This document shows, piece by piece, positions 1,347 through 63,929 of a DNA stretch of 64,000 nucleotides. Source of the stretch: Octopus vulgaris (taxonomy: Eukaryota); the NCBI GenBank assembly GCA_951406725.2, contig OX597817.1, positions 27,032,001 to 27,096,000 of the forward strand, written 5' to 3'. The notes beneath the pieces are model-generated. The model was not told where the DNA came from, ran no database searches, and saw nothing but the letters and a program-made list of their open reading frames with translations. The translations under genes and the position numbers were made by a program. Within the stretch, counting starts at the first letter, position 1. The number at the start of each line of letters is the position of its first letter.

Positions 1347-1516
1347 TACCTATTTCTTTATTACCCACAAGGGGCTAAACATAGAGGGGACAAACAAGGA
1401 CAGTCATAGGTATTAAGTCGATTACATCGACCCCAGTACGTAAATGGTACTTAATTTATCGACCCCAAAAGGATGAAAGGCAAAGTCGATCTCGGCGGAA
1501 TTTGAACTCACAACGT
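1347..1516 (-). mobile_element. SINE family B (Nin-domain-like), 5' truncated
   Basis: Minus strand reads tttgcctttcatccttttggggtcgataaattaagtacc...gccccttgtgggtaataaagaaataggta. Confidence 0.8.
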
Positions 1517-4272: not shown

Positions 4273-5075
4273 CATCATCATCATCGCTTAACGTCTGCTT
4301 TCCATGCTAGCATGAGCTACATGGTTTGACTAAGGACTGGCAAGCCAAGAGGCTGTACCAGACTCCAATTTGATCTGGCAAGGTTTCTACAGCTGGATGT
4401 CCTTCCTAACGCCAACCACTCTGAGAGTGCAGTGGGTGCTTTTTACATGCCACTGGCATGGGGGCCAGTCAGGCAGTACTGGCATCAACCACACTTGAAT
4501 GGTGCTTTTTACATGCCACCTGCATGGGGCGGCCAGACAGGTGGTTCTGGCATTGTCTACACTTGAATGGTGCTTTTCATGTGCCACTGGCATGGGAGCC
4601 AGTCAGGCAGCACTGGTATCGAGCACACTTGAATTGTGCTTTTTGCATCCACTTTCCATGCTGGCATGGGTTGGATGGTTTGATAGAGGACTGGCAAGCC
4701 AAGTGGCTGCACCAGGCTCTAGTCTGATCTGGCAAGATTTCTACAGCTGGATGACCTTCCTAATGGCAACCACTACAAGAATGCAGTCAGTGCTTTTTAC
4801 ATGCCACCGGCATGGGGGCCAGTCAGGCAGTAATAGCATCAACCACGCTCAACTGGTGTTTTTTACGTGCCACTGGCATGGAACCAGTCAGGCAGCACTG
4901 GCATTGATCATGCTCATGCGGTGCTTTTTAAGTGCCACTAGCACGGGAACCAGTCTGGTTCCCGTGCATCAATCACACTTGACTGGCACTTTTTACTAGC
5001 CACAGGCATAGGTACCAGTCAGGTAGTACTGGCATTGGCCACAACAATGATTTCTCTTGACTTAACAGGTCCTTT
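4273..5075 (-). mobile_element. Repeat family E with internal ~66-bp tandem units
   Basis: Unit ggtgcttttt(a)catgccactggcatgggagccagtcaggcagtactggcat... repeated about 7 times. Confidence 0.7.
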
Positions 5076-7002: not shown

Positions 7003-7212
7003 TACCTATTTCTTTATTGCCCACAAGGGGCTAAACATAGAGGGGACAAACAAGGACAGACAAAGGGATTAAGTCGATTACATCGACCCCAGTGTGTAAC
7101 TAGTACTTAATTTATCGACCCGGAAAGGATGAAAGGTAAAGTCGACCTCGGCAGAATTTGAACTCAGAACGCAGCGGCATCCAGCGTGCTAATGATTCTG
7201 CCAGCTCGCCAC
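7003..7212 (-). mobile_element. SINE family B, internally deleted
   Basis: Matches 49824-50058 in reverse. Confidence 0.8.
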
Positions 7213-8509
7213 CTGATACCACTTAGCCACAATAGTTCTTAAGTCTACTCTGACCCACAACAGAAGCACCTGTCAGGGTACCCTACTATGGGTTAACTTA
7301 CATATTACAGCTTGCCCTCCTTTGCATGTAAAGATTGAATCCAATGGATTATGCCGGAGAAAACTTCATAGTTCAATGGAAGAGAAAGCAGTCGCAGCAA
7401 TGCATTGTGGAGTGCAGAGGGCCAGACATCTTGGTCATCCACTGCATCTGTCTCCATCCCCAGTCATTTTGACCGGGTCTTACAACTAGATGCAAGATGG
7501 TTATGGATGAGAGAATTAAGTGGATGCTGTCCAACACTTCACTTTAAATAAAGACACAGCAACAAACATGACCCTATGTATTCTCACTTTGAAATAATAA
7601 AGTGTAACATGAGAAAGATTTAACTGCTATCTTTTCAAATTGAGTGACCATATATAGGGTTCCCCACTGCCATGTTGAAACTATTGATGACAATATCTTG
7701 AAATGGTTGACAATTTCTAAGTTTAAACACATTCTACAATTTAGAATTCTCTTCTTTTTTTTTTACTAAAAGTAGTTTTTTTCTAATGCTAGAATAAATA
7801 TCTCTCCATGTTAATAATTTAAATTCTTTGAATTTATTAACGATATATTCAAATACTTCATTTTTTTTTTTTTTAAGTAGAATAAAAATACATAATCTTT
7901 GAAGGTGAATATATTTCAGACATTGCAATTCAATTTTGATTTTTCCATTCTTTTATTTTTTTTTTGTCCTTAGACATAATGTCTTTATGTCTATCAACAG
8001 AATTTCGGAATGGGAAAACAATAAAAATCATTATTTATGTATTGACTGACATTTTGTTCATATAATCAATAGCATCTGGTTTACTATTGGTGGCTTGCTT
8101 TTCTCATTCTTTCTTTTTTCTTTTCTTTTTTGGTATGTGTATGTATTTAAGAACTGTATCATAAATTTCTGTAAATATTCATGTAGACAAAAGAATTTGA
8201 TTTTTGGTGGAAGTCACTTACATTTTTCTTTAAATCGTTATAGCATATATTTTATTTGTTGCTTTAGTCTATTGTTAGTTTCAGCCAGTAGATTGCAACC
8301 ATGCTGTGGCACAAGCACACGTAAACCCTAAGTCTCTTTGCACACAATACACTTATATATACGAACTAACAAATCAAAGCTTCTATGTTAGAAATAGCAG
8401 CTTCACCCTACTATCTAAAAAACAAAGCAACAAATATTAGAAAGATGGGATGGTCACAGTTGCAATATCTTTTTATCATAAGAGTAAAAGAGTATTATCA
8501 CTGGGAGAT

Positions 8510-18908: not shown

Positions 18909-19071
18909 GGTGCAGGAGTGGTTGTGTGGTAAGTAGCTTGCTTACCAACCACATGGTTCCGAGTTCAATCCCATTGCATGGCACCTTGGGCAAGTGTCTT
19001 CTACAATAGCCTTGGGCTGACCAAAGCCTTGTGAGTGGATTTGGTAGATGGAAACTGAAAGAAGCCTGTCG

Positions 19072-19118
<47 letters not shown>

Positions 19119-19339
19119 ATATATATTAGTGTGTTTGTCTGTCTGTGTTTATCCAATATTGCTTGACAACCGATGCTGGTGTGTTTACATCCCCGTAACT
19201 TAGCAGCTGGGCAAAAAGAGACCAATAGAATAAGTACAAGGCTTACAAAGAATAAGTTCTGGGGTCGATTTGCTCGACTAAAAGGCAGTGCTCCAGCATG
19301 GTCGCAGTCAAATGACTGAAACAAGTAAAAGAGTAAAAG
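18909..19339 (+). mobile_element. SINE family A
   Basis: Full-length match. Confidence 0.85.
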
Positions 19340-19555
19340 GTACATCAAACAAAATGCCTTGAAATATTTCTTTTGATTCATTATGTTCTGAGTTTAAACG
19401 ATACTTTTGTCAACCTTGCCTTTCATCCCATGATGAAATAAAACATCAGTAAAGTGCTCAGTTTCCTCAAATTCACTGGCCCTGTGCCTGTTTTAAAACC
19501 ATCAACGTAGTAAAATCAATCCAATGTATGGTGTTTCTCATGAAAATTACTTACT

Positions 19556-19945
19556 CTCTCTTTTTACTCTTTTACTTGTTTCAGTCATTTGACTGCGGCC
19601 ATGCTGGAGCACCGCCTTTAGTCGAGCAAATCGACCCCGGGACTTATTCTTTGTAAGCCTAATACTTATTCTATCGGTCTCTTATGCCGAACCACTAAGT
19701 TACGGGGACGTAAACACACCAGCAATGCTAGGGGGACAAACACAGACACACAAACACACACATACATATATATACATATATACGACAGGATTCTTTCAGT
19801 TTCCGTCTATCAAATCCACTCACAAGGCATTGGTCGGCCCGGGGCTATAGCAGAAGACACTTGCCCAAGATGCCACGCAGTGGGACTGAACCCGGAACCA
19901 TGTGGCTGGTTAGCAAGCTACTTACCACACAGCCACTCCTGCGCC
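19556..19945 (-). mobile_element. SINE family A
   Basis: Full-length reverse match. Confidence 0.85.
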
Positions 19946-20532
19946 TATGTTCCTTTTCAGTTATATTTACTGTGACAGTGATAGAATTTAACGTATTTTC
20001 TTAGATAGAAAACTTACATCTTTAATTTAGCAAACTAAGTACTATTTTGTGAACTAAGCGCTAATACACTACTGCAGCAAACATGACAACTAAAATTAGC
20101 CGTTACTATATCCATATTGAAAGTAGTTAAGTATTCTAGAATGTTTAAATCAAGAAAACATTGTCAATGGCAACAACTGGTCTGATGCATCTGAGACTGA
20201 ATTGATGAAACTTAAAAATTCTAAATGGAGAAAGGTGAAGAATAATCTGAAATTTGAAAGACACAGAAACAACTCTAAACGTATTTTAGTCTTCTTAATT
20301 CTCTTCAGGAAAGCATAGTCGTTCATATGCTTGCTTGGATAACTTAACAAAGCATTCAGCCTAGCTGTTGTTCCTTCATGTTCTAGTAAGCTGCTCTGAT
20401 TTGTGGCGATTATATCACATTATTATTGAACTTGGACTGAAGAGTATTATGTGATTTGGTTCTCGGCAGTGTGCAACATACATGAATATTAAATATGTTG
20501 CACATTGTGCACACAGATCATCAACACAACCA

Positions 20533-20589
<57 letters not shown>

Positions 20590-21339
20590 TACCTACATAT
20601 AGACAGACATATTTTGGGGAGATGAGTCACTGCTGTCTCTAGCGGTCAAGCATCCATCATTGACAAGACCAAGGAAGGTCGAAATCATGTGAACTGATGG
20701 CCTTGGCGTTGTAGATCGTGGGGAATTATCTCTGTCATTTATACTAGCTGCTTAAATGCTTAACGCTTACACTTCTTATGCTTTGATCTTTGAATTGTAC
20801 CTATCTATTGCTACTTTGTTCCTGTTCTTAAGGACACTAAGTCATCGGGATCAAAAATCTCTAGTTCAACCTGTCGCTTAAAGCTATCCCTTTACTGAGT
20901 AAAAATAAATGAGTCTACTAATTCACAGCACCAATGAATTCATTTGCTGTATGAGGTGGAAAGCTTACTTCTTTGTAAATGACTCTTCTTTTAATTCTGA
21001 AAACGGAAACTGTACACTTCAAATTTTCTCTAATTAATTTAGATCTTGTAAAAAATTTTCCTCCTAATTGGGGTCTGAATAATTTCGAAAAAACTTTAAT
21101 CAATTTGATGAGAAAGTTTTTTTTTATTAGCACATGTGTTTAGTATGTGCACAGAGTCCAATTTGTCTGTACTTTGGTGTTCAAAATGTATTGTCATAAG
21201 GACGACACACCACATTTGCTTCCATATACTTTCCTACATATTCTGAAAATATCATTGCATAAATTAGGCTTTCAACTAATTTTTTTAAAAATTGACCTTG
21301 TAGCAATATCGTCTCTTATTGCTATCTTCACTGTTTGAG

Positions 21340-21590
21340 AATAGTATTATTATAACCTCGGTCGAGATTACAAACATCTTCGGCTAGTTCAACATTGTTG
21401 TAAACACTAATTCGATTGGCTGTCACGTTGGTATCTACTACGTTCGCACCGCTGGTTATCACTTGGCGCGATTTGCCTCCGTTTATTTTCGCGCCATAGT
21501 TCCAAGCAGCCAATCACAGCTTTCCATTTCTGAAGTTCATTGGGAGCCACAGAAAGCTTATAAAAGAAGGTTTCTCAGACAAATAGCAGT
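21340..21590 (+). promoter_or_regulatory. Putative Pol II promoter, possibly bidirectional: CCAAT boxes, E2F-like sites, TATA box, start near CAGT
   Basis: gattggctg 21414-21422 and cagccaatc 21507-21515; ttggcgcg 21463-21470 and ttttcgcgcc 21486-21495; TATAAAAG 21559-21566, 29 nt before the A of CAGT (21588); locally CpG-rich. Confidence 0.6.
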
Positions 21591-21719
21591 CTTCGACTTT
21601 TAGTCTTTGAGTTAGTTAGTTGGTGTTTTTCTGGTGTGTTATTCTGGTGTGTTTATTTCAAGAGAAGAGGTTGTGAGTTCGAGTCCGTTGGAGGACGTGG
21701 AATAATTTTTTTCTTGAAA

Positions 21720-23065
21720 ATGCAAGAGCAGACTTACGCGCGAGCGGCAAGCAGAGGCCTAGTCGCCAGTGAAAAGGAAATGGAGGAAGTGGTGGTCGAA
21801 CAGAAGACTTTACAGAAGTATTTCGACAGTTTAAAGAGGGAGGGTGACTGCGTAAGAGTCACACCGTCCGAGGAGGAGGAAAGCAGTGCAGAGAAGCGTA
21901 CTATAACGTACAGGACGTGGTGCGTGGAGTCGAAGAAAATTGAAGTAGCGGAAATAGAAGAAGTAGAAAAGTGTCTGAAGGAAATTGAGGGTGAACCCAC
22001 ATTTTTCAAAGAGGAAAGAAATATGCCACGGTTGTGGTATATTTTGAAACAGAAGATGAGGCAAAAAAGAATGCAACAAGAATTTTGAAGTCGGATAAGT
22101 GGACTTTGTTACCAAGTTACTGCGGAAGGAGAGCAGTGAGGATGAGAATCAATAGAATCTCACCCGAATTTAATATGGAAAGGTTGCTGGCAGCAGTGCT
22201 GTTTAACTGCAAGGATGATGTGGAAGTACTGAAGGTGGAGAAGTCAGCAGAGGTGAAGTGGTGGGGATATACGGTGCAGGTTCTGGCACACATAACCGTG
22301 AGGGACCTGTACAACATCCCGGAGGAGTTGGTCTACCCTGACGAGACTCGGCTCCGAGTTGTGGTAGAGGGAAGACCCCCAATTTGCTATAATTGTAAAT
22401 CGAGGGGCCACATGAAGGATGTGTGCCCTCGGGAAAAAACAAAAGCACCAGAGGTTGTGATAGAGGAGTGTAAAGATGCGTGTGTGGAGGAAGCGAAAGC
22501 GGAGGAAACACGAATGGAGGAGCAGTTAAATGAGGAAGAACGAGCAAGTGCAGAAGAGGAAAAAACAGAAGAGGAAAAAACAGAAGATAGGAAGAGATCA
22601 AGGGTGGAATCACCACCGAAAGATCAAAAAAAGAAAAAAAAAGTCAAAAGTAAGATAGCAGAAGAGAAAACATACAAAGGACAGGAAGTAAAAGAGAAGG
22701 AGAGAGAGCGGCCAAGGACAGAATTTGAACAAAAATGGGAGAAAAGAGTGAACGAACAATTGGAATCGTGTAAATATGGAAGAAGACCTACAGGAAAAAA
22801 CTTGAAGGCAGTTGTGATGTATATCAAGAATACAGAAGTGGAAAAGAGACTGGTAGGTAAGAAAGGGTTGGTCAGGGTGAAGGTGAACCCAAAACTGTAT
22901 GGTGAAGATGTAAAAGGCGTCATTATAGACAAAGAGACATACATAAAATTAAAAAAGATATATAATGCTATGCACATAGTGCATTATGTACGGTATGATA
23001 AATTACCAGATGTAATAGATCAAATGGATCTATTGGATTATATGACGGACGAGCGTCTAACGTAA
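21720..23065 (+). pseudogene. ORF1-like CDS, unit 1, one frameshift in an A run at ~22008 (may be a sequencing error)
   Basis: ORFs 21636-22088 and 22034-23065 join into the same protein as unit 7; tttcaaagagg here versus tttcaaaagagg in units 2, 3, 5 and 6. Confidence 0.75.
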
Positions 23066-23568
23066 AAGAAAAAGAATTAGAATTGTAAATTGTATGATGT
23101 AAAGTTGTATTTTGAACAAGAATATATGTAAGGTTAACATGTAAATTGTAAAATTATTGTACTTTGAACTGAATATATGTAACTGGAAAAACTGTATTTT
23201 GAACTAGAATATATGAAATGTAAAATTGTAAAATTATTGTAACTGTAAAATTGTATTGGAATATATGAAATGTATAATTGTATTTTAAACGGAACTGCGA
23301 GTTGGGGGTTCGTAAGCCGTTCCATCTCATTACATAAAATTCATTCTTACTTCATACTTTATTTTATTTATGTACCCCATGTCCCGTCTTGTAATGTCCC
23401 CCTCTTCGTCGCCCCTTGTGGGTAATAAAGAAATCAGTCTTCGACTTTTAGTCTTTGAGTTAGTTAGTTGGTGTTTTTCTGGTGTGTTATTCTGGTGTGT
23501 TTATTTCAAGAGAAAAGGTTGTGAGTTCGAATCCGTCGGAGGACGTGGAATAATTTTTTTTCTTGAAA

Positions 23569-24919
23569 ATGCAAGAGCAGACTTACGCGCGAGCGGCAAG
23601 CAGAGGCCTAGTCGCCAGTGAAAAGGAAATGGAGGAAGTGGTGGTCGAACAGAAGACTTTACAGAAGTATTTCGACAGTTTAAAGAGGGAGGGTGACTGC
23701 GTAAGAGTCACACCGTCCGAGGAGGAGGAAAGCAGTGCAGAGAAGCGTACTATAACGTACAGGACGTGGTGCGTGGAGTCGAAGAAAATTGAAGTAGCGG
23801 AAATAGAAGAAGTAGAAAAGTGTCTGAAGGAAATTGAGGGTGAACCCACATTTTTCAAAAGAGGAAAGAAATATGCCACGGTTGTGGTATATTTTGAAAC
23901 AGAAGATGAGGCAAAAAAGAATGCAACAAGAATTTTGAAGTCGGATAAGTGGTCTTTGTTACCTAGTTACTGCGGAAGGAGAGCAGTGAGGATGAGAATC
24001 AATAGAATCTCACCCGAATTTAATATGGAAAGGTTGCTGGCAGCAGTGCTGTTTAACTGCAAGGATGATGTGGAAGTACTGAAGGTGGAGAAGTCAGCAG
24101 AGGTGAAGTGGTGGGGATATACGGTGCAGGTTCTGGCACACATAACCGTGAGGGACCTGTACAACATCCCGGAGGAGTTGGTCTACCCTGACGAGACTCG
24201 GCTCCGAGTTGTGGTAGAGGGAAGACCCCCAATTTGCTATAATTGTAAATCGAGGGGCCACATGAAGGATGTGTGCCCTCGGGAAAAAACAAAAGCACCA
24301 GAGGTTGCGATAGAGGAGTGTAAAGATGCGTGTGTGGAGGAAGCGAAAGCGGAGGAAACACGAATGGAGGAGCAGTTAAATGAGGAAGAACGAGCAAGTG
24401 TAGAAGAGGAAAAAACAGAAGAGGAAAAAACAGAAGATAGAAAGAGATCAAGGGTGGAATCACCACCGAAAGATCTAAAAAAGAAAAAAATCAAAAGTAA
24501 GATAGCAGAAGAGAGAAGAGAAAACATACAAAGGACAGGAAGTAAAAGAGAAGGAGAGAGAGCGGCCAAGGACAGAGTTTGAACAAAAATGGGAGACAAG
24601 AGTGAACGAACAATTGGAATCGTGTAAATATGGAAGAAGACCTACAGGAAAAAACTTGAAGGCAGTTGTGATGTATATCAAGAATACAGAAGTGGAAAAG
24701 AGACTTGTAGGTAAGAAAGGGTTGGTCAGGGTGAAGGTGAACCCAAAACTGTATGGTGAAGATGTAAAAGGCGTCATTATAGACAAAGAGACATACATAA
24801 AATTAAAAAAGATATATAATGCTATGCACATAGTGCATTATGTACGGTATGATAAATTACCAGATGTAATAGATCAAATGGATCTATTGGATTATATGAC
24901 GGACGAGCGTCTAACGTAA
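23569..24919 (+). pseudogene. ORF1-like CDS, unit 2, frameshift in AG-rich tract at ~24510
   Basis: ORFs 23563-24582 and 24602-24919 together reconstitute the protein. Confidence 0.75.
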
Positions 24920-25428
24920 AAGAAAAAGAATTAGAATTGTTAATTGTAAATTGTATGATGTAAAGTTGTATTTTGAACAAGAATATATGTAATGTTAACA
25001 TGTAAATTGTAAAATTATTGTACTTTGAACTGAATATATGTAACTGGAAAAACTGTATTTTGAACTAGAATATATGAAATGTAAAATTGTAAAATTATTG
25101 TAACTGTAAAATTGTATTGGAATATATGAAATGTATAATTGTATTTTAAACGGAACTGCGAGTTGGGGGTTCGTAAGCCGTTCCATCTCATTACATAAAA
25201 TTCATTCTTACCTCATACTTTATTTTATTTATGTACCCCATGTCCCGTCTTGTAATGTCCCCCTCTTCGTCGCCCCTTGTGGGTAATAAAAAAATCCGTC
25301 TTCGACTTTTAGTCTTTGAGTTAGTTAGTTGGAGTTATTCTGGTGTGTTATTCTGGTGTGTTTATTTCAAGAGAAGAGGTTGTGAGTTCGAGTTCTTTGG
25401 AGGACGTGGAATAATTTTTTTCTTGAAA

Positions 25429-26780
25429 ATGCAAGAGCAGACTTACGCGCGAGCGGCAAGCAGAGGCCTAGTCGCCAGTGAAAAGGAAATGGAGGAAGTG
25501 GTGGTCGAACAGAAGACTTTACAGAAGTATTTCGACAGTTTAAAGAGGGAGGGTGACTGCGTAAGAGTCACACCGTCCGAGGAGGAGGAAAGCAGTGCAG
25601 AGAAGCGTACTATAACGTACAGGACGTGGTGCGTGGAGTCGAAGAAAATTGAAGTAGCGGAAATAGAAGAAGTAGAAAAGTGTCTGAAGGAAATTGAGGG
25701 TGAACCCACATTTTTCAAAAGAGGAAAGAAATATGCCACGGTTGTGGTATATTTTGAAACAGAAGATGAGGCAAAAAAGAATGCAACAAGAATTTTGAAG
25801 TCGGATAAGTGGACTTTGTTACCAAGTTACTGCGGAAGGAGAGCAGTGAGGATGAGAATCAATAGAATCTCACCCGAATTTAATATGGAAAGGTTGCTGG
25901 CAGCAGTGCTGTTTAACTGCAAGGATGATGTGGAAGTACTGAAGGTGGAGAAGTCAGCAGAGGTGAAGTGGTGGGGATATACGGTGCAGGTTCTGGCACA
26001 CATAACCGTGAGGGACCTGTACAACATCCCGGAGGAGTTGGTCTACCCTGACGAGACTCGGCTCCGAGTTGTGGTAGAGGGAAGACCCCCAATTTGCTAT
26101 AATTGTAAATCGAGGGGCCACATGAAGGATGTGTGCCCTCGGGAAAAAACAAAAGCACCAGAGGTTGTGATAGAGGAGTGTAAAGATGCGTGTGTGGAGG
26201 AAGCGAAAGCGGAGGAAACACGAATGGAGGAGCAGTTAAATGAGGAAGAACGAGCAAGTGTAGAAGAGGAAAAAACAGAAGAGGAAAAAACAGAAGATAG
26301 AAAGAGATCAAGGGTGGAATCACCACCGAAAGATCTAAAAAAGAAAAAAACCAAAAGTAAGATGCAGAAGAGAGAGAAGAGAAAACATACAAAGGACAGG
26401 AAGTAAAAGAGAAGGAGAGAGAGCGGCCAAGGACAGAGTTTGAACAAAAATGGGAGACAAGAGTGAACGAACAATTGGAATCGTGTAAATATGGAAGAAG
26501 ACCTACAGGAAAAAACTTGAAGGCAGTTGTGATGTATATCAAGAATACAGAAGTGGAAAAGAGACTTGTAGGTAAGAAAGGGTTGGTCAGGGTGAAGGTG
26601 AACCCAAAACTGTATGGTGAAGATGTAAAAGGCGTCATTATAGACAAAGAGACATACATAAAATTAAAAAAGATATATAATGCTATGCACATAGTGCATT
26701 ATGTACGGTATGATAAATTACCAGATGTAATAGATCAAATGGATCTATTGGATTATATGACGGACGAGCGTCTAACGTAA
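25429..26780 (+). pseudogene. ORF1-like CDS, unit 3, frameshift at ~26363
   Basis: ORFs 25231-26406 and 26463-26780. Confidence 0.75.
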
Positions 26781-27291
26781 AAGAAAAAGAATTAGAATTG
26801 TTAATTGTAAATTGTATGATGTAAAGTTGTATTTTGAACAAGAATATATGTAATGTTAACATGTAAATTGTAAAATTATTGTACTTTGAACTGAATATAT
26901 GTAACTGGAAAAACTGTATTTTGAACTAGAATATATGAAATGTAAAATTGTAAAATTATTGTAACTGTAAAATTGTATTGGAATATATGAAATGTATAAT
27001 TGTATTTTAAACGGAACTGCGAGTTGGGGGTTCGTAAGCCGTTCCATCTCATTACATAAAATTCATTCTTACCTCATACTTTATTTTATTTATGTACCCC
27101 ATGTCCCGTCTTGTAATGTCCCCCTCTTCGTCGCCCCTTGTGGGTAATAAAAAAATCAGTCTTCGACTTTTAGTCTTTGAGTTAGTTAGTTGGTGTTATT
27201 CTGGTGTGTTATTCTGGTGTGTTTATTTCAAGAGAAAAGGTTGTGAGTTCGAATTCGTCGGAGGACGTGGAATAATTTTTTTTTCTTGAAA

Positions 27292-28641
27292 ATGCAAGAG
27301 CAGACTTACGCGCGAGCGGCAAGCAGAGGCCTAGTCGCCAGTGAAAAGGAAATGGAGGAAGTGGTGGTCGAACAGAAGACGTTACAGAAGTATTTCGACA
27401 GTTTAAAGAGGGAGGGTGACTGCGTAAGAGTCACACCGTCCGAGGAGGAGGAAAGCAGTGCAGAGAAGCGTACTATAACGTACAGGACGTGGTGCGTGGA
27501 GTCGAAGAAAATTGAAGTAGCGGAAATAGAAGAAGTAGAAAAGTGTCTGAAGGAAATTGAGGGTGAACCCACATTTTTCAAAGAGGAAAGAAATATGCCA
27601 CGGTTGTGGTATATTTTGAAACAGAAGATGAGGCAAAAAAGAATGCAACAAGAATTTTGAAGTCGGATAAGTGGTCTTTGTTACCAAGTTACTGCGGAAG
27701 GAGAGCAGTGAGGATGAGAATCAATAGAATCTCACCCGAATTTAATATGGAAAGGTTGCTGGCAGCAGTGCTGTTTAACTGCAAGGATGATGTGGAAGTA
27801 CTGAAGGTGGAGAAGTCAGCAGAGGTGAAGTGGTGGGGATATACGGTGCAGGTTCTGGCACACATAACCGTGAGGGACCTGTACAACATCCCGGAGGAGT
27901 TGGTCTACCCTGACGAGACTCGGCTCCGAGTTGTGGTAGAGGGAAGACCCCCAATTTGCTATAATTGTAAATCGAGGGGCCACATGAAGGATGTGTGCCC
28001 TCGGGAAAAAACAAAAGCACCAGAGGTTGTGATAGAGGAGTGTAAAGATGCGTGTGTGGAGGAAGCGAAAGCGGAGGAAACACGAATGGAGGAGCAGTTA
28101 AATGAGGAAGAACGAGCAAGTGTAGAAGAGGAAAAAACAGAAGAGGAAAAAACAGAAGATAGAAAGAGATCAAGGGTGGAATCACCACCGAAAGATCTAA
28201 AAAAGAAAAAATCAAAAGTAAGATGGCAGAAGAGAGAGAAGAGAAAACATACAAAGGACAGGAAGTAAAAGAGAAGGAGAGAGAGCGGCCAAGGACAGAG
28301 TTTGAACAAAAATGGGAGAAAGAGTGAACGAACAATTGGAATCGTGTAAATATGGAAGAAGACCTACAGGAAAAAACTTGAAGGCAGTTGTGATGTATAT
28401 CAAGAATACAGAAGTGGAAAAGAGACTTGTAGGTAAGAAAGGGTTGGTCAGGGTGAAGGTGAACCCAAAACTGTATGGTGAAGATGTAAAAGGCGTCATT
28501 ATAGACAAAGAGACATACATAAAATTAAAAAAGATATATAATGCTATGCACATAGTGCATTATGTACGGTATGATAAATTACCAGATGTAATAGATCAAA
28601 TGGATCTATTGGATTATATGACGGACGAGCGTCTAACGTAA
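27292..28641 (+). pseudogene. ORF1-like CDS, unit 4, several single-base indels
   Basis: ORFs 27286-27660, 27606-28268 and 28312-28641. Confidence 0.75.
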
Positions 28642-29152
28642 AAGAAAAAGAATTAGAATTGTTAATTGTAAATTGTATGATGTAAAGTTGTATTTTGAAC
28701 AAGAATATATGTAATGTTAACATGTAAATTGTAAAATTATTGTACTTTGAACTGAATATATGTAACTGGAAAAACTGTATTTTGAACTAGAATATATGAA
28801 ATGTAAAATTGTAAAATTATTGTAACTGTAAAATTGTATTGGAATATATGAAATGTATAATTGTATTTTAAACGGAACTGCGAGTTGGGGGTTCGTAAGC
28901 CGTTCCATCTCATTACATAAAATTCATTCTTACCTCATACTTTATTTTATTTATGTACCCCATGTCCCGTCTTGTAATGTCCCCCTCTTCGTCGCCCCTT
29001 GTGGGTAATAAAAAAAATCCGTCTTCGACTTTTAGTCTTTGAGTTAGTTAGTTGGAGTTATTCTGGTGTGTTATTCTGGTGTGTTTATTTCAAGAGAAGA
29101 GGTTGTGAGTTCGAGTTCGTTGGAGGACGTGGAATAATTTTTTTTCTTGAAA

Positions 29153-30500
29153 ATGCAAGAGCAGACTTACGCGCGAGCGGCAAGCAGAGGCCTAGTCGCC
29201 AGTGAAAAGGAAATGGAGGAAGTGGTGGTCGAACAGAAGACTTTACAGAAGTATTTCGACAGTTTAAAGAGGGAGGGTGACTGCGTAAGAGTCACACCGT
29301 CCGAGGAGGAGGAAAGCAGTGCAGAGAAGCGTACTATAACGTACAGGACGTGGTGCGTGGAGTCGAAGAAAATTGAAGTAGCGGAAATAGAAGAAGTAGA
29401 AAAGTGTCTGAAGGAAATTGAGGGTGAACCCACATTTTTCAAAAGAGGAAAGAAATATGCCACGGTTGTGGTATATTTTGAAACAGAAGATGAGGCAAAA
29501 AAGAATGCAACAAGAATTTTGAAGTCGGATAAGTGGACTTTGTTACCAAGTTACTGCGGAAGGAGAGCAGTGAGGATGAGAATCAATAGAATCTCACCCG
29601 AATTTAATATGGAAAGGTTGCTGGCAGCAGTGCTGTTTAACTGCAAGGATGATGTGGAAGTACTGAAGGTGGAGAAGTCAGCAGAGGTGAAGTGGTGGGG
29701 ATATACGGTGCAGGTTCTGGCACACATAACCGTGAGGGACCTGTACAACATCCCGGAGGAGTTGGTCTACCCTGACGAGACTCGGCTCCGAGTTGTGGTA
29801 GAGGGAAGACCCCCAATTTGCTATAATTGTAAATCGAGGGGCCACATGAAGGATGTGTGCCCTCGGGAAAAAACAAAAGCACCAGAGGTTGTGATAGAGG
29901 AGTGTAAAGATGCGTGTGTGGAGGAAGCGAAAGCGGAGGAAACACGAATGGAGGAGCAGTTAAATGAGGAAGAACGAGCAAGTGTAGAAGAGGAAAACAG
30001 AAGAGGAAAAAACAGAAGATAGAAAGAGATCAAGGGTGGAATCACCACCGAAAGATCTAAAAAAGAAAAAATCAAAAGTAAGATAGCAGAAGAGAGAAGA
30101 GAAAACATACAAAGGACAGGAAGTAAAAGAGAAGGAGAGAGAGCGGACAAGGACAGAGTTTGAACAAAAATGGGAGACAAGAGTGAACGAACAATTGGAA
30201 TCGTGTAAATATGGAAGAAGACCTACAGGAAAAAACTTGAAGGCAGTTGTGATGTATATCAAGAATACAGAAGTGGAAAAGAGACTTGTAGGTAAGAAAG
30301 GGTTGGTCAGGGTGAAGGTGAACCCAAAACTGTATGGTGAAGATGTAAAAGGCGTCATTATAGACAAAGAGACATACATAAAATTAAAAAAGATATATAA
30401 TGCTATGCACATAGTGCATTATGTACGGTATGATAAATTACCAGATGTAATAGATCAAATGGATCTATTGGATTATATGACGGACGAGCGTCTAACGTAA
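29153..30500 (+). pseudogene. ORF1-like CDS, unit 5, indels in A-rich tracts at ~29995-30100
   Basis: ORFs 29147-30022 and 30183-30500. Confidence 0.75.
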
Positions 30501-30994
30501 AAGAATTAGAATTAGAATTGTAAATTGTATGATGTAAAGTTGTATTTTGAACAAGAATATATGTAATGTTAACATGTAAATTGTAAAATTATTGTACTTT
30601 GAACTGAATATATGTAACTGGAAAAACTGTATTTTGAACTAGAATATATGAAATGTAAAATTGTAAAATTATTGTAACTGTAAAATTGTATTGGAATATA
30701 TGAAATGTACAATTGTATTTTAAACGGAACTGCGAGTTGGGGGTTCGTAAGCCGTTCCATCTCATTACATAAAATTCATTCTTACCTCATACTTTATTTT
30801 ATTTATGTACCCCATGTCCTGTCTTGTAATGTCCCCCTCTTCGTCGCCCCTTGTGGGTAATAAAAAAATCCAGTCTTCGACTTTTAGTCTTTGAGTTAGT
30901 TAGTTGGTTGGAGTTATTCTGGTGTGTTTATTTCAAGAGAAGAGGTTGTGAGTTCGAATTCGTCGGAGGACGTGGAATAATTTTTTTCTTGAAA

Positions 30995-32348
30995 ATGCAA
31001 GAGCAGACTTACGCGCGAGCGGCAAGCAGAGGCCTAGTCGCCAGTGAAAAGGAAATGGAGGAAGTGGTGGTCGAACAGAAGACTTTACAGAAGTATTTCG
31101 ACAGTTTAAAGAGGGAGGGTGACTGCGTAAGAGTCACACCGTCCGAGGAGGAGGAAAGCAGTGCAGAGAAGCGTACTATAACGTACAGGACGTGGTGCGT
31201 GGAGTCGAAGAAAATTGAAGTAGCGGAAATAGAAGAAGTAGAAAAGTGTCTGAAGGAAATTGAGGGTGAACCCACATTTTTCAAAAGAGGAAAGAAATAT
31301 GCCACGGTTGTGGTATATTTTGAAACAGAAGATGAGGCAAAAAAGAATGCAACAAGAATTTTGAAGTCGGATAAGTGGACTTTGTTACCAAGTTACTGCG
31401 GAAGGAGAGCAGTGAGGATGAGAATCAATAGAATCTCACCCGAATTTAATATGGAAAGGTTGCTGGCAGCAGTGCTGTTTAACTGCAAGGATGATGTGGA
31501 AGTACTGAAGGTGGAGAAGTCAGCAGAGGTGAAGTGGTGGGGATATACGGTGCAGGTTCTGGCACACATAACCGTGAGGGACCTGTACAACATCCCGGAG
31601 GAGTTGGTCTACCCTGACGAGACTCGGCTCCGAGTTGTGGTAGAGGGAAGACCCCCAATTTGCTATAATTGTAAATCGAGGGGCCACATGAAGGATGTGT
31701 GCCCTCGGGAAAAAAACAAAAGCACCAGAGGTTGTGATAGAGGAGTGTAAAGATGCGTGTGTGGAGGAAGCGAAAGCGGAGGAAACACGAATGGAGGAGC
31801 AGTTAAATGAGGAAGAACGAGCAAGTGTAGAAGAGGAAAAAACAGAAGAGGAAAAAACAGAAGATAGAAAGAGATCAAGGGTGGAATCACCACCGAAAGA
31901 TCTAAAAAAGAAAAAAATCAAAAGTAAGATAGCAGAAGAGAGAGAAGAGAAAACATACAAAGGACAGGAAGTAAAAGAGAAGGAGAGAGAGCGGCCAAGG
32001 ACAGAGTTTGAACAAAAATGGGAGACAAGAGTGAACGAACAATTGGAATCGTGTAAATATGGAAGAAGACCTACAGGAAAAAACTTGAAGGCAGTTGTGA
32101 TGTATATCAAGAATACAGAAGTGGAAAAGAGACTTGTAGGTAAGAAAGGGTTGGTCAGGGTGAAGGTGAACCCAAAACTGTATGGTGAAGATGTAAAAGG
32201 CGTCATTATAGACAAAGAGACATACATAAAATTAAAAAAGATATATAATGCTATGCACATAATGCATTATGTACGGTATGATAAATTACCAGATGTAATA
32301 GATCAAATGGATCTATTGGATTATATGACGGACGAGCGTCTAATGTAA
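30995..32348 (+). pseudogene. ORF1-like CDS, unit 6, one extra A at ~31715
   Basis: ORFs 30851-31750 and 31695-32348 overlap across a homopolymer. Confidence 0.75.
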
Positions 32349-32852
32349 AAGAATTAGAATTGTTAATTGTAAATTGTATGATGTAAAGTTGTATTTTGAA
32401 CAAGAATATATGTAATGTTAACATGTAAATTGTAAAATTATTGTACTTTGAACTGAATATATGTAACTGGAAAAACTGTATTTTGAACTAGAATATATGA
32501 AATGTAAAATTGTAAAATTATTGTAACTGTAAAATTGTATTGGAATATATGAAATGTATAATTGTATTTTAAACGGAACTGCGAGTTGGGGGTTCGTAAG
32601 CCGTTCCATCTCATTACATAAAATTCATTCTTTACTTCATATTTTATTTTATTTTATGTACCCCATGTCCCGTCTTGTAATGTCCCCCTCTTCGTGGCCC
32701 CTTGTGGGTAATAAAAAAACAGTCTTCGACTTTTAGTCTTTGAGTTAGTTAGTTGGAGTTATTCTGGTGTGTTATTCTGGTGTGTTTATTTCAAGAGAAG
32801 AGGTTGTGAGTTCGAATTCGTCGGAGGACGTGGAATAATTTTTTTCTTGAAA

Positions 32853-34196
32853 ATGCAAGAGCAGACTTACGCGCGAGCGGCAAGCAGAGGCCTAGTCGCC
32901 AGTGAAAAGGAAATGGAGGAAGTGGTGGTCGAACAGAAGACTTTACAGAAGTATTTCGACAGTTTAAAGAGGGAGGGTGACTGCGTAAGAGTCACACCGT
33001 CCGAGGAGGAGGAAAGCAGTGCAGAGAAGCGTACTATAACGTACAGGACGTGGTGCGTGGAGTCGAAGAAAATTGAAGTAGCGGAAATAGAAGAAGTAGA
33101 AAAGTGTCTGAAGGAAATTGAGGGTGAACCCACATTTTTCAAAGAGGAAAGAAATATGCCACGGTTGTGGTATATTTTGAAACAGAAGATGAGGCAAAAA
33201 AAGAATGCAACAAGAATTTTGAAGTCGGATAAGTGGACTTTGTTACCAAGTTACTGCGGAAGGAGAGCAGTGAGGATGAGAATCAATAGAATCTCACCCG
33301 AATTTAATATGGAAAGGTTGCTGGCAGCAGTGCTGTTTAACTGCAAGGATGATGTGGAAGTACTGAAGGTGGAGAAGTCAGCAGAGGTGAAGTGGTGGGG
33401 ATATACGGTGCAGGTTCTGGCACACATAACCGTGAGGGACCTGTACAACATCCCGGAGGAGTTGGTCTACCCTGACGAGACTCGGCTCCGAGTTGTGGTA
33501 GAGGGAAGACCCCCAATTTGCTATAATTGTAAATCGAGGGGCCACATGAAGGATGTGTGCCCTCGGGAAAAAACAAAAGCACCAGAGGTTGTGATAGAGG
33601 AGTGTAAAGATGCGTGTGTGGAGGAAGCGAAAGCGGAGGAAACACGAATGGAGGAGCAGTTAAATGAGGAAGAACGAGCAAGTGTAGAAGAGGAAAAAAC
33701 AGAAGAGGAAAAAACAGAAGATAGAAAGAGATCAAGGGTGGAATCACCACCGAAAGATCAAAAAAAGAAAAAAATCAAAAGTAAGATAGCAGAAGAGAAA
33801 ACATACAAAGGACAGGAAGTAAAAGAGAAGGAGAGAGAGCGGACAAGGACAGAGTTTGAACAAAAATGGGAGACAAGAGTGAACGAACAATTGGAATCGT
33901 GTAAATATGGAAGAAGACCTACAGGAAAAAACTTGAAGGCAGTTGTGATGTATATCAAGAATACAGAAGTGGAAAAGAGACTTGTAGGTAAGAAAGGGTT
34001 GGTCAGGGTGAAGGTGAACCCAAAACTGTATGGTGAAGATGTAAAAGGCGTCATTATAGACAAAGAGACATACATAAAATTAAAAAAGATATATAATGCT
34101 ATGCATATAACGCATTATGTACGGTATGATAAATTACCAGATGTAATAGATCAAATGGATCTATTGGATTATATGACGGACGAGCGTCTAATGTAA
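32853..34196 (+). CDS. ORF1/Gag-like nucleic-acid-binding protein (Tx1-ORF1/ZCCHC3-like), unit 7, 447 aa open frame
   Basis: ATG at 32853 (MQEQTYARAA), motif IPEELVYPDETRLRVVVEGRPPICYNCKSRGHMKDVCP (CCHC knuckle), E/K-rich linker, stop at 34196. A compensated -1/+1 indel pair near 33140-33200 replaces RGKKYATVVVYFETEDEA with EERNMPRLWYILKQKMRQ. Confidence 0.8.
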   Translation: MQEQTYARAASRGLVASEKEMEEVVVEQKTLQKYFDSLKREGDCVRVTPSEEEESSAEKRTITYRTWCVESKKIEVAEIEEVEKCLKEIEGEPTFFKEERNMPRLWYILKQKMRQKKNATRILKSDKWTLLPSYCGRRAVRMRINRISPEFNMERLLAAVLFNCKDDVEVLKVEKSAEVKWWGYTVQVLAHITVRDLYNIPEELVYPDETRLRVVVEGRPPICYNCKSRGHMKDVCPREKTKAPEVVIEECKDACVEEAKAEETRMEEQLNEEERASVEEEKTEEEKTEDRKRSRVESPPKDQKKKKIKSKIAEEKTYKGQEVKEKERERTRTEFEQKWETRVNEQLESCKYGRRPTGKNLKAVVMYIKNTEVEKRLVGKKGLVRVKVNPKLYGEDVKGVIIDKETYIKLKKIYNAMHITHYVRYDKLPDVIDQMDLLDYMTDERLM

Positions 34197-35654
34197 AAGA
34201 ATTAGAATTGTTAATTGTAAATTGTATGATGTAAAGTTGTATTTTGAACAGGAATATATGTAATGTTAACATGTAAATTGTAAAATTATTGTACTTTGAA
34301 CTGGAATATATGTAACTGGAAAAACTGTATTTTGAACTAGAATATATGAAATGTAAAATTGTAAAATTATTGTAACTGTAAAATTGTATTGGAATATATG
34401 AAATGTACAATTGTATTTTAAACGGAACTGCGAGTTGGGGGTTCGTAAGCCGTTCCATCTCATTACATATAATTCATCTTTACTTCATATTTTATTTTAT
34501 TTTATGTACCCCATGTCCCGTCTTGTAATGTCCCCCTCTTCGTCGCCCCTTGTGGGTAATAAAAAAACTTTAGTTCTTCTCAGAGCTCTTAGGCTTTTAG
34601 TTTCAGTCCTTCTCAGGGCGAACCTCTGACCACACAGCTCGTCTTAGGCTTTTAGTTCTTTTAAGAACTAAGTCTCTGACCACACAGAGAATACTCGACC
34701 AAGTTCCAGTTCGAGGCAGGCGACCACCATTAATACAAGATGTTACAGATACCTCTCATACTGTTAGTGTGAAATATCACCATGAAGAAAACGGTTACAA
34801 GATATCTATAACTAGAGAAAAATAACCAAGCAGAACATATAATGAAGAAGCAGCAAGAACCAATCGACAAACATCGAAGATTTAAATTGTACACGAGACA
34901 ACTACAGATTCAACTATAGCGGTTAGGTGAAATTCTCGCCACGAAGAAAACGGCTACAGTAACATGTCTGGAAGTATATTCATATCAAGAGAAAGATAAA
35001 CACAACGAGTGATTCAATTAATCTCAACTGCGACACGCAATATCTTGATATGGAACTCTTACGCTGTACCTCTTGAAACGGTAAATCAATTATCTGTTCT
35101 TGGGTTCTAGTTTCTTCTAAGAACTACCTTAAGCCATCTGTTATTACCTGTTGCCAAGCCGATACCAACAACATTAACTGTGAATCAAATCCCATCGTCT
35201 TTCACTGGTCAGTACCTTTTTACGCCTAACGAACACACAGACACAAAAACATGCGAACACTTACAAACTTCCAACATCAAACATGATTGTAAAATATGTA
35301 AAATAAATAATGTATATATCTTAAAAAGAAATCTTGTTGTCATTCCAAACTTATGTGTATTGCCGCTGCATGTATTATATAGTCAGTAAATAAATTATTA
35401 AGAATGGGATCGCGTGCGATGGTATATTCTATACGATGCGACCGCATGTGATCCTATTTTTATAACCTTATTTGAAATGGATCTCCAATCCTTCTGACAG
35501 ATTTAAACCTATACTACCACAATTAGACCCCTCCCCACGTATTTTACTGTTGGTTCTGTTCTTATTGTGTAGTTTGGTTTTATTTAATATTTTCTCATTG
35601 ACTCAAGATGCTTTCTGCTTTCTATACTAGAAGCCGCTTTCTTTACTAGAAGCC

Positions 35655-49823: not shown

Positions 49824-50058
49824 GGCGGCGAGCTGGGAGAAGCGTTAGCACGCCGAGCGAAATGCATTGCGGTATTTCGTCTGCCGTTACGTTCTGAGTT
49901 CAAATTCCGCCGAGGTCGACTTTGCCTTTCATCCTTTCGGGGTCGATAAATTAAGCACCAATTACGCACTGGGGTCGATGTAATCGACTTAATACCTATG
50001 TCTGTCCTTGTTTGTCCCCTCTATGTTTAGCCCCTTGTGGGTAATAAAGAAATAGGTA
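49824..50058 (+). mobile_element. SINE family B, full length (tRNA-like head, Nin-like domain, tail shared with the array unit)
   Basis: ggcggcgagctgg...gagttcaaattcc...ggggtcgataaattaagcacc...gccccttgtgggtaataaagaaataggta. Confidence 0.85.
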
Positions 50059-51874: not shown

Positions 51875-52444
51875 ATAATGATAATAATAATCCTATCTAC
51901 AATAGGCGCAAGTCCTGAAATTTTCGGGGGGGGGGGATAGTCGATAGTTGACTTCAACGGAATTTGAACTCAGTATATAAAGACGGACGAAATACTGCTA
52001 AATATTTTGCCCGGCGTGTTAATGATCCTGCTAGCTCACCAATAATAATGATTTCAAATTTTTGCCACAAGGGCAGCTTGCAGGAGGAGATTAAGTCGAT
52101 TACATCGACCCCTGTGTTTCGCTGGTATTTAGTTTATCGACCCCAAAAGGATGAAAATCAAAATTGACCTCGGAGGAATTTGAACTCAGAACGTAGCGAT
52201 GGGCGAAATACCTATTTCTTTACTGCCCACAAGGGGCTACAAACAGAAGGGACAAACAAGGACAGACAGACGGATTAAGTCGATTATATGACCCCAGTGC
52301 GTAACTGGTACTTATTTAATCGACCCCATAAGGATGAAAGGCAAAGTCGACTTCGGCGGAATTTGAACTCAGAATGTAGCGGCAGACGAAATACTGTAAA
52401 GCATTTCGCCCGGCGTGCTAACGTTTCTGCCAGCTCGCCGCCAA

Positions 52445-52499
<55 letters not shown>

Positions 52500-53345
52500 T
52501 TTTCTGTTATAGGCACAAGACCTGAAATTTGGCGAAAAGGTACTAGTCGAGATCATCGACTCCAGTGTTTCACTGGTACTTAATTTATCGACCCCGAATG
52601 GATGAAAGGCAAAGACGACCTCAGCGGAATTTAAACTCAAAACGTAAAGATGGACGAAATCCGGCTAACCATTTTGCTCAGCGGGCTAACGATTCTGCCA
52701 GCACACCGCATTTCATAATAATAATGATAAACTTTTCTGTTATAAGCACAAGGCCTGAAATATGGGGGAGGAGAATAGTCGACCACATCGACCCCAGTGT
52801 TTGACTGGTACTTATTTTATAGACCCCTTAAAGGATGAAAGGCAAAGTCGACCTCGGCGGAATTTGAACTCAGAACGTATCGGCAGACGAAATACTTATT
52901 TCTTTACTACCCACAAGGGGCTAAACACAGAAGGGACAAACAAGGACAGACAAACGGATTAAGTCGATTATATCGACCCCAGTGCGTAACTGGTACTTAC
53001 TTTATCGACCCCAAAAGGATGAAAGGCAAAGTCGACCTCGGCGGAATTTGAACTCAGAACGCAGCGGCAAACGAAATACCTATTTCTTTACTACCCACAA
53101 GGGGCTAAACACAGAGGGGACAAACAAGGACAGACAAATGGATTAAGTCGAGTATATCGACCCCAGTGCGTAACTGGTACTTACTTTATCGACCCCGAAA
53201 GGATGAAAGGCAAAGTCGACCTCGGTGGAATTTGAACTCAGAAAGTAGCGGCAGACGAAATACCGCTAAGCATTTCGCCCGGCGTGCTAACGTTTCTGCC
53301 AGCTCGCCGCCTTTCATAATAATCCTTTCTATAATAGGCACCAAA
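51875..53345 (-). mobile_element. Cluster of about 7 head-to-tail family B SINEs with alternative tails
   Basis: Repeated tcgaccc...ggatgaaaggcaaagtcgacctcggcggaatttgaactcag, with a 184-bp period at 52893-53261. Confidence 0.85.
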
Positions 53346-61656: not shown

Positions 61657-62055
61657 TTTTACTCTTTTACTTGTTTCAGTCATTGACTGCGGCCATGCTG
61701 GAGCACCACCTTTAGTCGAGCAAATCAACCCCGGGACTTATTCTTTGTAAGCCCAGTACTTATTCTATCGGTCTCTTTTGCTGAACCGCTAAGTGACGGG
61801 GACGTAAACACACCAGCATCGGTTGTCAAGCAATGCTAGAGGGACAAACACAGACACAGAAACATATACACATACATATATATTTATATATATACGACAG
61901 GTTTCTTTCAGTTTCCGTCTACCAAATCCACTCACAAGGCATTGGTCGGCCCGAGGCTATAGCAGAAGACATTTGCCCAAGATGCCACGCAGTGGGACTG
62001 AACCCAGAACCATGTGGTTGGTAGGCAAGCTACTTACCACACAGCCACTCCTGCG

Positions 62056-62089
<34 letters not shown>

Positions 62090-62258
62090 TATATACGACG
62101 GGCTTCTTTCAGTTTCCGTCTACCAAATCCACTCATAAGGCTTTGGTCGGCCCGAGGCTATAGTAGAAGACACTTACCCAAAGTGCCACGTAGTGGGACT
62201 GAACCCGGAACCATGTGGTTAGTAAGCAAGCTACTTACCACACAGCCACTCCCACGCC
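61378..62258 (-). mobile_element. Three adjacent SINE family A pieces (3' half, full copy, head fragment)
   Basis: 61378-61650, 61655-62057 and 62093-62258. Confidence 0.8.
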
Positions 62259-63367
62259 TTGTGTTTTAATTTGTTGGTATCACATATCTAAACTACAAAC
62301 GTTAAGTCACTGTTTCAAATTTCTACGAGTGATATTTTGCTCGAATAAATATCCAGAGTGTTCTAGAAGACACACACATACACACACACATGCCCACATA
62401 TAAAGACATATATAAACATACATGCAAATATACATACATTCATGCATGCATACATACGCAGACATGACTCTGTGGATAGACAGGTTGCCTTATGTGATCT
62501 CGATTTCTATCATAATGTATGTCACCTTATCTTTTATGTCGATCAGTTTATGTCGATCAGTGAATGAAATTGGTTGATGGAAAATGTGCTGCAGTTTGTC
62601 GCCTCTCTGTCTTTCTCACTCCTCCTCGCTCTCTCTTTCACTCTCTCTCTATCCCCCTTATCTCTCTCTCTCTCTCTCTTTCTCTATATGTATGTATATA
62701 TATATATATACAAAACTTTCAAACACTAAGATTTGAAATAAGATGTCACTACTGTTAAAATTATCTGTGGATATTTTTATAAATTGGTGGTATTAACACT
62801 AGTAACATAGGTGATCCATAGGCAAATACCATTATTTAGTTAGAAATTACAAATTTGCACGAAGCATAAGGATGCAGAAAGGCTTCAACCTGCCAGAAAT
62901 AAGAGCTAAAGTCTTAATTAAACCAACATACAGCACTAAGATAACAGAGAAATAACAGTAGGCGAAGAAACGGAAAGAATTAATGCATTCAAAAGCACAA
63001 CTATGAAAGATTATGCAGTTTATGACATCTGTATACCCTGGTTTCGGTGTTTGGAAATTTGATCCTTGAGCCTCTTCAGTGTAGCCCACCAAGTAAAAAT
63101 TCAAGGTCATCATGTTAAACTCCGCTAACATACTGGTTTTGTTTTGCACCAAAAACACAGCACATAGGGAAGAAATATTTATAAACAAAACATTCAAACT
63201 CTAGGATTTGGAATAAGATATGTCACTACTGTTAATATCATCTGTGGATTAAAATTATAATTTGATGGTATCAGCAGTAGCAACATAGGTGATCCACAGG
63301 CACATAGCATTATTTAGCTAGAAATTACAAATTTGCATGAAGTGTAAGGATGCAGAAAAGCATATAT

Positions 63368-63405
<38 letters not shown>

Positions 63406-63407
<2 letters not shown>

Positions 63408-63616
63408 TCTTTTATTTGTTTCAGTCATTTTACTGTGGCCATGCTGGAGCACAGCATTTACTCTAGCAAATCGACCCCAGGACTTATTCTTTGTAAGCCT
63501 AGTATTTACTCTATCAGATTCTTTTGCCAAACCACTAAGTTACGGGGACATAAACACACCAGCGTTGGTTGTCAAGCAATGTTGGGGAACAAACACAGAC
63601 ACAAACACATACACAA

Positions 63617-63647
<31 letters not shown>

Positions 63648-63808
63648 CATATATACGACAGGCTTCTTTCAGTTTCCGTCTACCAAATCCACTCACAAGG
63701 CATAGGTCGGCCCGAGGCTATAGCAGAAGACACTTGCCCAAGATGCCACGCAGTGGGACTGAACCCGGAACCATATGGTTGGTTAGCAAGCTACTTACCA
63801 CACAGCCA
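63406..63808 (-). mobile_element. SINE family A
   Basis: Reverse match. Confidence 0.85.
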
Positions 63809-63811
63809 TAT

Positions 63812-63929
<118 letters not shown>

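Follow-up and report, generated by a model that had tools for sequence, protein, structure and literature searches.

The window, i.e. the whole 64-kb stretch of octopus DNA analysed here, contains an array of seven head-to-tail units of ~1.83 kb each, extending from 21605 to about 34568 inside a repeat designated D, and an 18–19-nt junction separates all of the units (Table 1). When compared with an intact relative, all seven units are frameshifted at least once. At position 22007, one extra A was found in the contigs of four out of four public runs; therefore, part of the frameshifts may reflect misassembly or be peculiar to these copies. Contigs of the four runs cover the unit, as a type of data that cannot show transcription starts, and no promoter belonging to the unit itself was seen. 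The ORF of the unit gave a weak CCHC match and, as a lead, Atlas proteins with two RRMs plus a knuckle resembled it (score 0.90), and among solved structures only its zinc knuckle was matched. No ORF1 homologues were detected outside this genome at E 0.001, with either a single sequence or a 12-sequence alignment as the query, and an Rfam search of the window gave no match. Elsewhere in the window, tandem repeats with a 65–66-bp period occupy 4435–5035 (a related repeat adjoins a SINE in locus L118), and another abundant short repeat family, partly inverted and unrelated to the tail described below, was found at 19000–19960, 61808–62269 and 63348–63893.

Table 1. Coordinates of the features in the 64-kb window.
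Feature	Position	Strand	Description
SINE B copy, 5′-truncated	1352..1516	-	From sequence comparison
SINE B copy, internal deletion	7008..7222	-	5′ end approximate
Host repeat D, 5′ part	21299..21586	+	~1.1-kb solo-LTR-like repeat; CCAAT box 21510-21514, TATA box 21559-21566
Junction sequence, first copy	21587..21604	+	18-19 nt; target-site duplication from D; starts 28 bp below the TATA box; between all units
Unit 1, ORF1-only element	21605..23434	+	ORF1 at 21720-23065, frameshifted once near 22007, with a CCHC knuckle and probably two RRM-like domains
Shared tail	23373..23434	+	Predicted hairpin stem 23411-23414 / 23420-23423, five-base loop, followed by an A-rich terminus that lacks poly(A)
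Units 2-7 of the head-to-tail array	23453..34568	+	0.3-1.3% divergence between units; at least one frameshift each
Host repeat D, 3′ part	34569..35464	+	From repeat comparison
Full-length SINE B	49824..50053	+	tRNA-like head, central domain, shared tail; A and B boxes by eye
SINE B copy continuing into another SINE	52214..52443	-	From sequence comparison
SINE chain	52744..53311	-	Complete SINE B; 184-bp unit that begins again at SINE position 47-48; different tail type on the last unit

The first unit and the full-length SINE B end alike, as the preliminary description had claimed: the 24 terminal bases are identical (23411–23434 and 50030–50053), and 49 of the last 60 positions match in the alignment. 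With up to three mismatches allowed, the 24-mer has 13 matches within the window, corresponding to the seven array units and six SINE ends (1352, 7008, 50030, 52214, 52898 and 53082), compared with none in 100 shuffles. Among the array units, only unit 1 carries the exact 24-mer, units 2–7 deviating by one or two bases inside the A-run. The additional copies reported earlier at 1347, 7003, 52209, 52893 and 53077 do exist, although these minus-strand positions were five bases too low because a short extension beyond the tail had been included.

The SINE is one of the most abundant repeats of this genome, with 73,251 exact matches of a 34-nt SINE-type tail pattern compared with none for the reversed control. 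ARAGORN did not find a tRNA gene in SINE B. When 74 SINE ends were followed into their flanks, 30 continued into SINE position 47 and two into position 14, and the remaining 42 entered other DNA. A duplication of at least 8 bp was present at 17 of these 42 unique-flank ends (lengths 9–23 bp; 0.7 expected from shuffled pairs), a few of the 17 being in AT repeats, and the remaining 25 had none. The chains of SINEs fit insertion into the SINE head, because their last units often have another tail; recombination is the alternative. Two such chains in the window (52744–53311 and 51960–52213) have terminal units with other tail types.

Partner LINEs and ORF1-only lineages

At L031, a locus reached by tracing ORF1 relatives, a train of ORF1-only units terminates in a LINE with an ORF1 and an ORF2 in which endonuclease (1e-14), RT (4.6e-31) and zf-RVT (1.6e-8) domains were identified. 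A search with the C-terminal 250 aa of this ORF2 scored 150 copies at 88–100%, many of them with an open ORF2 of 1132 aa. The shared tail was present at all 30 sampled loci of group I LINEs, although their final few bases are not those of the SINE. A pattern for the exact end of the SINE, outside SINE context, had 14 matches, namely six with ORF2 sequence upstream (one of which, L301/L315, is merely the end of an ORF2, after an ORF1), three with ORF1 only, three SINE variants as judged by eye and two short pieces. Group IV, an older sister LINE family, has exactly the ending of unit and SINE; over the 60-nt tail, it shares 49–50 positions with the unit and 47–51 with the SINE, the latter being the common 3′ tail expected of a stringent SINE–LINE pair. 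A group IV-type end also joins SINE position 14 (L301), as two of the SINE ends do; therefore, LINE and SINE share at least one target site.

Together with groups II (ORF2 of 1134–1148 aa) and III, these LINEs form a single RT clade with 64–100% RT identity, separated by a long branch from another LINE of this genome. The best relative with a solved structure was human L1 ORF2p (4e-65, compared with 1e-25 for R2), in a set of structures that represents few clades, and the closest named ORF2 relative among the matches listed was from Argonauta (62%). Open ORF1s of 440–515 aa are present in the LINEs, and their target duplications are mostly 12–18 bp long. The partners are thus L1-group LINEs, as defined by an AP endonuclease, an RT nearest to that of L1 and a C-terminal zinc domain. 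Their membership of Tx1 is likely, judging from target preference and lack of poly(A) rather than from named Tx1 references, none of which was among the 120 RT matches listed or in the seven clusters. As in Tx1, multicopy targets are preferred, with 24 of 30 ends of the youngest LINE in one repeat and other insertions in U2 genes and hammerhead-like repeats. A published octopus annotation counts 13 recently active L1-Tx1 families (PMC13282606).

The preliminary description had proposed one autonomous LINE, probably of the L1/Tx1 clade, behind both the unit and the SINE, to be found by searching for the tail and extending upstream. Such a search did lead to ORF2-bearing LINEs, and L1-group LINEs with intact ORF2 and an RT nearest to L1 ORF2p do carry the tail, so that this part of the proposal holds. 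The idea of a single LINE does not, as at least four related groups exist and the best match to the very end of the SINE is the older group IV, not the youngest LINE. The group I LINE-type ending has 383 matches in the genome, a count that also takes in the ORF1-only family E, which gives ~190 SINE tails for each group I LINE-type tail; therefore, the bulk of the SINE copies may be older than the youngest LINE. Target-site duplications of ~9–23 bp are found in LINE, SINE and ORF1-only element, and this agreement in length is supported for all three types. As evidence of a common enzyme, the sharing of the tail is circumstantial.

Folding predicted a hairpin with a 4-bp stem and a five-base loop at 23411–23423, and the same hairpin in the SINE tail. 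Its stability did not exceed that of shuffled sequences (z from −1.8 to +0.2, with energies like those of the shuffles), and another structure was obtained for two of six tails. In older unit subfamilies and in LINE groups III and II, the letters of the stem differ while pairing, as read by eye, is kept; the loop is similar across these tail families except for group II LINEs, whose loop differs. At least four tail types occur on SINEs whose head and core are the same, again with a constant loop and varying paired stems (by eye). With a hairpin filter that itself demands pairing, 85 of 115 SINE copies fitted and 30 did not, most of the misfits being decayed. Since the stem changes across families while its pairing, by eye, persists, the hairpin is probably the feature recognised.

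A search of the genome with ORF1 scored 149 places at 44–100%. A phylogenetic tree built from 37 representatives put families A (the unit), B, C and E, which are all ORF1-only, on long branches apart from the LINE ORF1s; two of its rows marked as ORF1-only (L089 and L189) are probably broken LINEs. The ORF1 of family A is 26–35% identical to LINE ORF1s and 30–39% to those of families B, C and E. Within family A, dN/dS was 0.06–0.21 in the 19 of 24 comparisons that could be computed, the other five having saturated dS and one pair in the set being counted twice, and dS was saturated between the ends of the lineage. Therefore, ORF1 has long been selected without an ORF2, and the unit is a member of an old ORF1-only lineage under purifying selection. 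Its ORF1 is homologous to the partner ORF1, it has no ORF2 and its 3′ end is partner-like, as in ORF1-only non-autonomous LINEs. The separate deep ORF1 lineages and the low identity to LINE ORF1s rule out a recent internal-deletion derivative of the current helper.

The ORF1-only element is dispersed with target duplications (14–23 bp), i.e. it has retrotransposed on its own account, and a sister array at L099/L004 has a clean duplication on both flanks. Older family A copies gave 131 tail matches in the genome; among 30 that were sampled, ORF1 was upstream of 27 and ORF2 upstream of none. Together with the different loop of group II LINEs, this weakens the assignment of a particular helper to the older units. 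The tail of the young unit, which occurs 32 times on nine contigs, is nearly equal to that of the sibling ORF1-only family C, which suggests a swap of tails between these passengers.

Host repeats and landing sites

Repeat D gave 40 matches out of 213 candidates in the genome and was uninterrupted ('empty') at 28 of the best 30 loci. It starts with TG and finishes with TA rather than CA, and its fixed ends are flanked by a 4-bp target duplication (21295–21298 and 35465–35468 for the copy in the window), which was exact in 10 of 14 loci with both ends found and also in the window copy. From the fixed ends, the short duplication and the internal TATA box, as read in 3-kb loci, D is classed as a solo-LTR-like element. 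Other elements in turn harbour D, which lies at the end of a Penelope-like ORF in L099 and within a Gypsy-like gag in L100. The former locus raised the identity of D as a Penelope terminal repeat, of which hammerheads are a mark (PMC4209133); this was rejected, as the sense strand lacked a hammerhead motif and a Penelope-like ORF lay beside only one of 30 loci. Family A occupies the same site of D in three further loci (L049, L099 and L100), and in L317 a truncated group IV LINE lies 31 bp below the TATA box of a D-like sequence.

After 19 of 27 old family A units, a motif was found that we take to be hammerhead-like from its core. Rfam did not report a hammerhead at the gathering score in 15 loci, L164 giving only repeat-driven noise. 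The targets of group II LINEs are these hammerhead-like repeats and position +1 of U2 snRNA. At the first base of U2 genes, the group II LINE is also found in tandem (L174, L175 and L224–L227; C23 and C3), and it leaves a complete U2 downstream that is severed from its upstream region. The youngest LINE ends at 24 of 30 loci in a repeat G, presumably Helitron-like from its ends. A decayed ORF1-like fragment within G contains the main target site of this LINE (3′ part in L051, 5′ part in L092). Trains of mixed families are the rule in G, and some may have spread inside this host. A whole train moving as one composite element was disfavoured, because trains differ in the order and identity of their elements and individual units are flanked by duplications of their own.

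Several other insertions were recorded. Long tandem arrays of complete LINEs with a period of ~5.3 kb occupy another repeated target (L151–L156 and L161; C22, C27, C30, C8 and C15), and in L098 a LINE lies within a ~42-bp satellite. In L195 and L220, just the last 23–30 nt of the tail were inserted, with duplications of 16–17 bp. A splice-donor-like word is present 20–70 nt past the target in L158, L160, L162, L183 and L195, as in a short first exon. In L187, a LINE lies 30 bp below the exact TATA of a locally duplicated promoter-like sequence with an ATG downstream, possibly a host gene.

Mobilisation and choice of target

The shared tail, the partner LINEs with intact ORF2, the similar duplications, the selection on ORF1, and the host with its insertion site are observed. 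In the explanation that we consider very probable, the ORF1-only unit and SINE B are passengers of an L1-group (Tx1-like) LINE clade that is predicted to recognise a short 3′ hairpin rather than poly(A). Hairpin recognition, mobilisation in trans and promoter borrowing would then be its main steps. ORF2p of the LINE would bind the hairpin in trans and prime at a nick, and a few read-through bases at the 3′ end of the RNA that match the target may assist the priming. The unit in D, 28 bp below a TATA box, is probably transcribed from the promoter of D. As an insertion duplicates its site, later copies could hit the same place and give rise to head-to-tail trains, often of mixed families, to which unequal crossover may have added units. 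ORF1p of the ORF1-only element most likely acts in cis on its own RNA, which would account for the maintenance of ORF1, and this is the simpler reading because the LINEs have open ORF1s of their own. In TRE5-A.2, the hairpin is essential and ORF1 in cis raises mobility (PMC3159450).

With respect to the choice of targets, start-site targeting and sequence homology plus survival of transcribed copies are about evenly balanced. Active guidance of the clade to Pol II transcription starts, through core-promoter factors or open chromatin and possibly via ORF1p, has in our view just under an even chance; the repeats would be merely the commonest promoters hit, and such guidance would add to the sharing of the tail, not replace it. 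One family lies at U2 snRNA +1 with a duplication from −3 to +14, in at least four places forming two clusters, but U2 is the sole start known independently. The U2-inserted LINE has a 14-nt leader whose match to another host begins at the fourth duplicated base, which is the register of U2 +1, and the hammerhead-like motif after most old units points in the same direction, as does the binding of TBP, Brf1 and Bdp1 by the ORF1p of TRE5-A (PMC5911963).

Of 21 sites, 8 had a TATA-like motif 22–36 bp above the duplication, compared with 2.9 in shuffles (P about 0.003). However, these sites were picked post hoc and are non-independent (related repeats; host G twice), the interval 37–51 bp upstream scored equally high (8/21), and 13 sites had no TATA in the interval. 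Sixteen loci found after the idea was formed yielded eight later sites, six having no usable duplication and two repeating known hosts; three of the eight had an exact TATA, all of them 5′-truncated copies, and four had one with at most one mismatch (shuffles 0.06 and 0.67, respectively), whereas four had none. Against guidance by promoters, the short unique insertions L195, L205 and L220 have a common short motif instead of a TATA box, SINE sites are not enriched (1/9 with TATA), and at the main site of the youngest LINE (24/30 loci), in the ORF1-like fragment of G, the TATA-like word may be coding.

A similar standing, again slightly less than even, is given to target choice by sequence alone, in which a weak endonuclease preference and homology to the read-through end would select the site; promoter positions would then prevail because transcription is limited to copies below a promoter, and these would re-seed their own host repeat. 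The 3′ junction of each family opens with bases that also open its targets, U2 and two hammerhead-repeat hosts have a common short motif at the site, and SINE B enters SINE position 47 in 30 of 74 ends. This reading is opposed by the 5′-truncated copies, which could not be masters and also lie below exact TATA boxes, and by host sites that are otherwise dissimilar. In its broadest form, the start-site idea would describe an animal L1-group clade that homes to Pol II starts in snRNA genes and in repeats unrelated to each other, is expressed from the promoters found there, and moves, via one hairpin tag, both an old promoterless ORF1-only guild and the dominant SINE superfamily of the genome, its passengers switching helper or target by swapping the last 25 bases. 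This is a tentative proposal, which we hold to be rather more doubtful than not.

The earlier suggestion that the ORF1-only element could act in trans as a source of ORF1p for the LINE or the SINE found no support, the LINEs keeping open ORF1s of 440–515 aa. It is compatible with purifying selection on ORF1 without ORF2, with the common trains and targets of units and LINEs, and with the co-assembly proposed for HeT-A, HAL1 and Ag-Sponge (PMC5786205). However, the ORF1 of the unit and those of the LINEs are merely 26–35% identical, and selection on a mobile copy would need a benefit to that copy, which action in cis would provide directly; a helper in trans is thus unlikely. The tail is native to the unit, and its gain as a SINE fragment before local tandem amplification, without a common enzyme, which the preliminary description had kept as an alternative, is highly improbable despite the 24 identical bases and the ubiquity of SINE copies, as neither SINE head nor core precedes the tail, the 3′ UTR of the unit runs continuously into it as in older subfamilies with another stem, sibling ORF1-only families and LINEs end alike, and the young tail occurs on nine contigs.

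Relation to known systems

Passage on L1-group LINEs with a hairpin tail would provide a candidate enzyme source for an exceptionally abundant repeat of this genome, and would extend tail-specific recognition within the L1 group to an animal, a point relevant to the question of whether the poly(A) recognition of mammalian L1 is derived. ORF1-only lineages selected to silent-site saturation beside helpers with their own ORF1 constitute a natural test of ORF1p in cis, and start-site targeting, if true, would parallel TRE5-A on the Pol II side and offer a starting point for promoter-directed insertion. Precedents exist for all of the pieces, whereas their combination was not found in the literature searched, which did not extend to Repbase, Dfam, most subscription journals or supplements.

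HeT-A, a telomeric element of the Jockey clade, forms head-to-tail arrays, and HAL1 pairs with a poly(A)-recognising L1. Unlike HeT-A, the octopus arrays are interstitial and built within other repeats. HAL1, HeT-A and Ag-Sponge are, like the unit, non-autonomous LINE derivatives encoding ORF1p alone (PMC5753468, PMC5786205).

The crocodilian Tx1-Mar/SINEU, Tx1L and Keno elements offer a parallel, since there too other repeats are the targets of LINEs of the Tx1 clade and of a SINE that depends on them (PMC4494074). Tandem copies with the duplication between them, and a proposed transcription from flanking sequence, are described for Tx1-Mar/SINEU, and U1/U2-derived 5′ ends for this group of elements (PMC4494074). 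The crocodilian SINE is linked to its LINE by common targets and 5′ heads, whereas the octopus link is the 3′ tail itself; Keno inserts into U2 genes, whereas in octopus one family lies at U2 +1 and ORF1-only elements participate (PMC4494074).

Tail-specific recognition had been called unusual for the L1 group as known from mammals; it is unusual only in that comparison, being described for the maize/sorghum and Chlamydomonas pairs (PMC3747384) and shown for TRE5-A (PMC3159450). In ZmSINE2/3 with LINE1-1_ZM (maize/sorghum) and SINEX-3_CR with L1-1_CR (Chlamydomonas), an L1-clade LINE and a tRNA SINE share a tail of ~50 nt, in which a hairpin with compensatory changes is present (PMC3747384). 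These pairs belong to plants and algae, and site specificity and ORF1-only partners are not part of their description in that account (PMC3747384). Exchange of tails by SINE superfamilies is known (PMC4824008).

The Dictyostelium pair TRE5-A.1/TRE5-A.2 also consists of an L1-group LINE and an ORF1-only derivative, which there is moved in trans (PMC3159450, PMC5911963). As described in these sources, TRE5-A needs its 3′ hairpin, is helped by ORF1 in cis and inserts position-specifically at promoters. TRE5-A.2 arose from its helper by deletion, whereas octopus has at least four ORF1-only lineages whose identity to the helpers and among themselves is 26–39%. According to the same accounts, TRE5-A.2 targets Pol III genes in the opposite orientation, whereas the octopus elements insert in the sense orientation, and set against TRE5-A as presented there, a SINE with the common tail is a feature of the octopus system.
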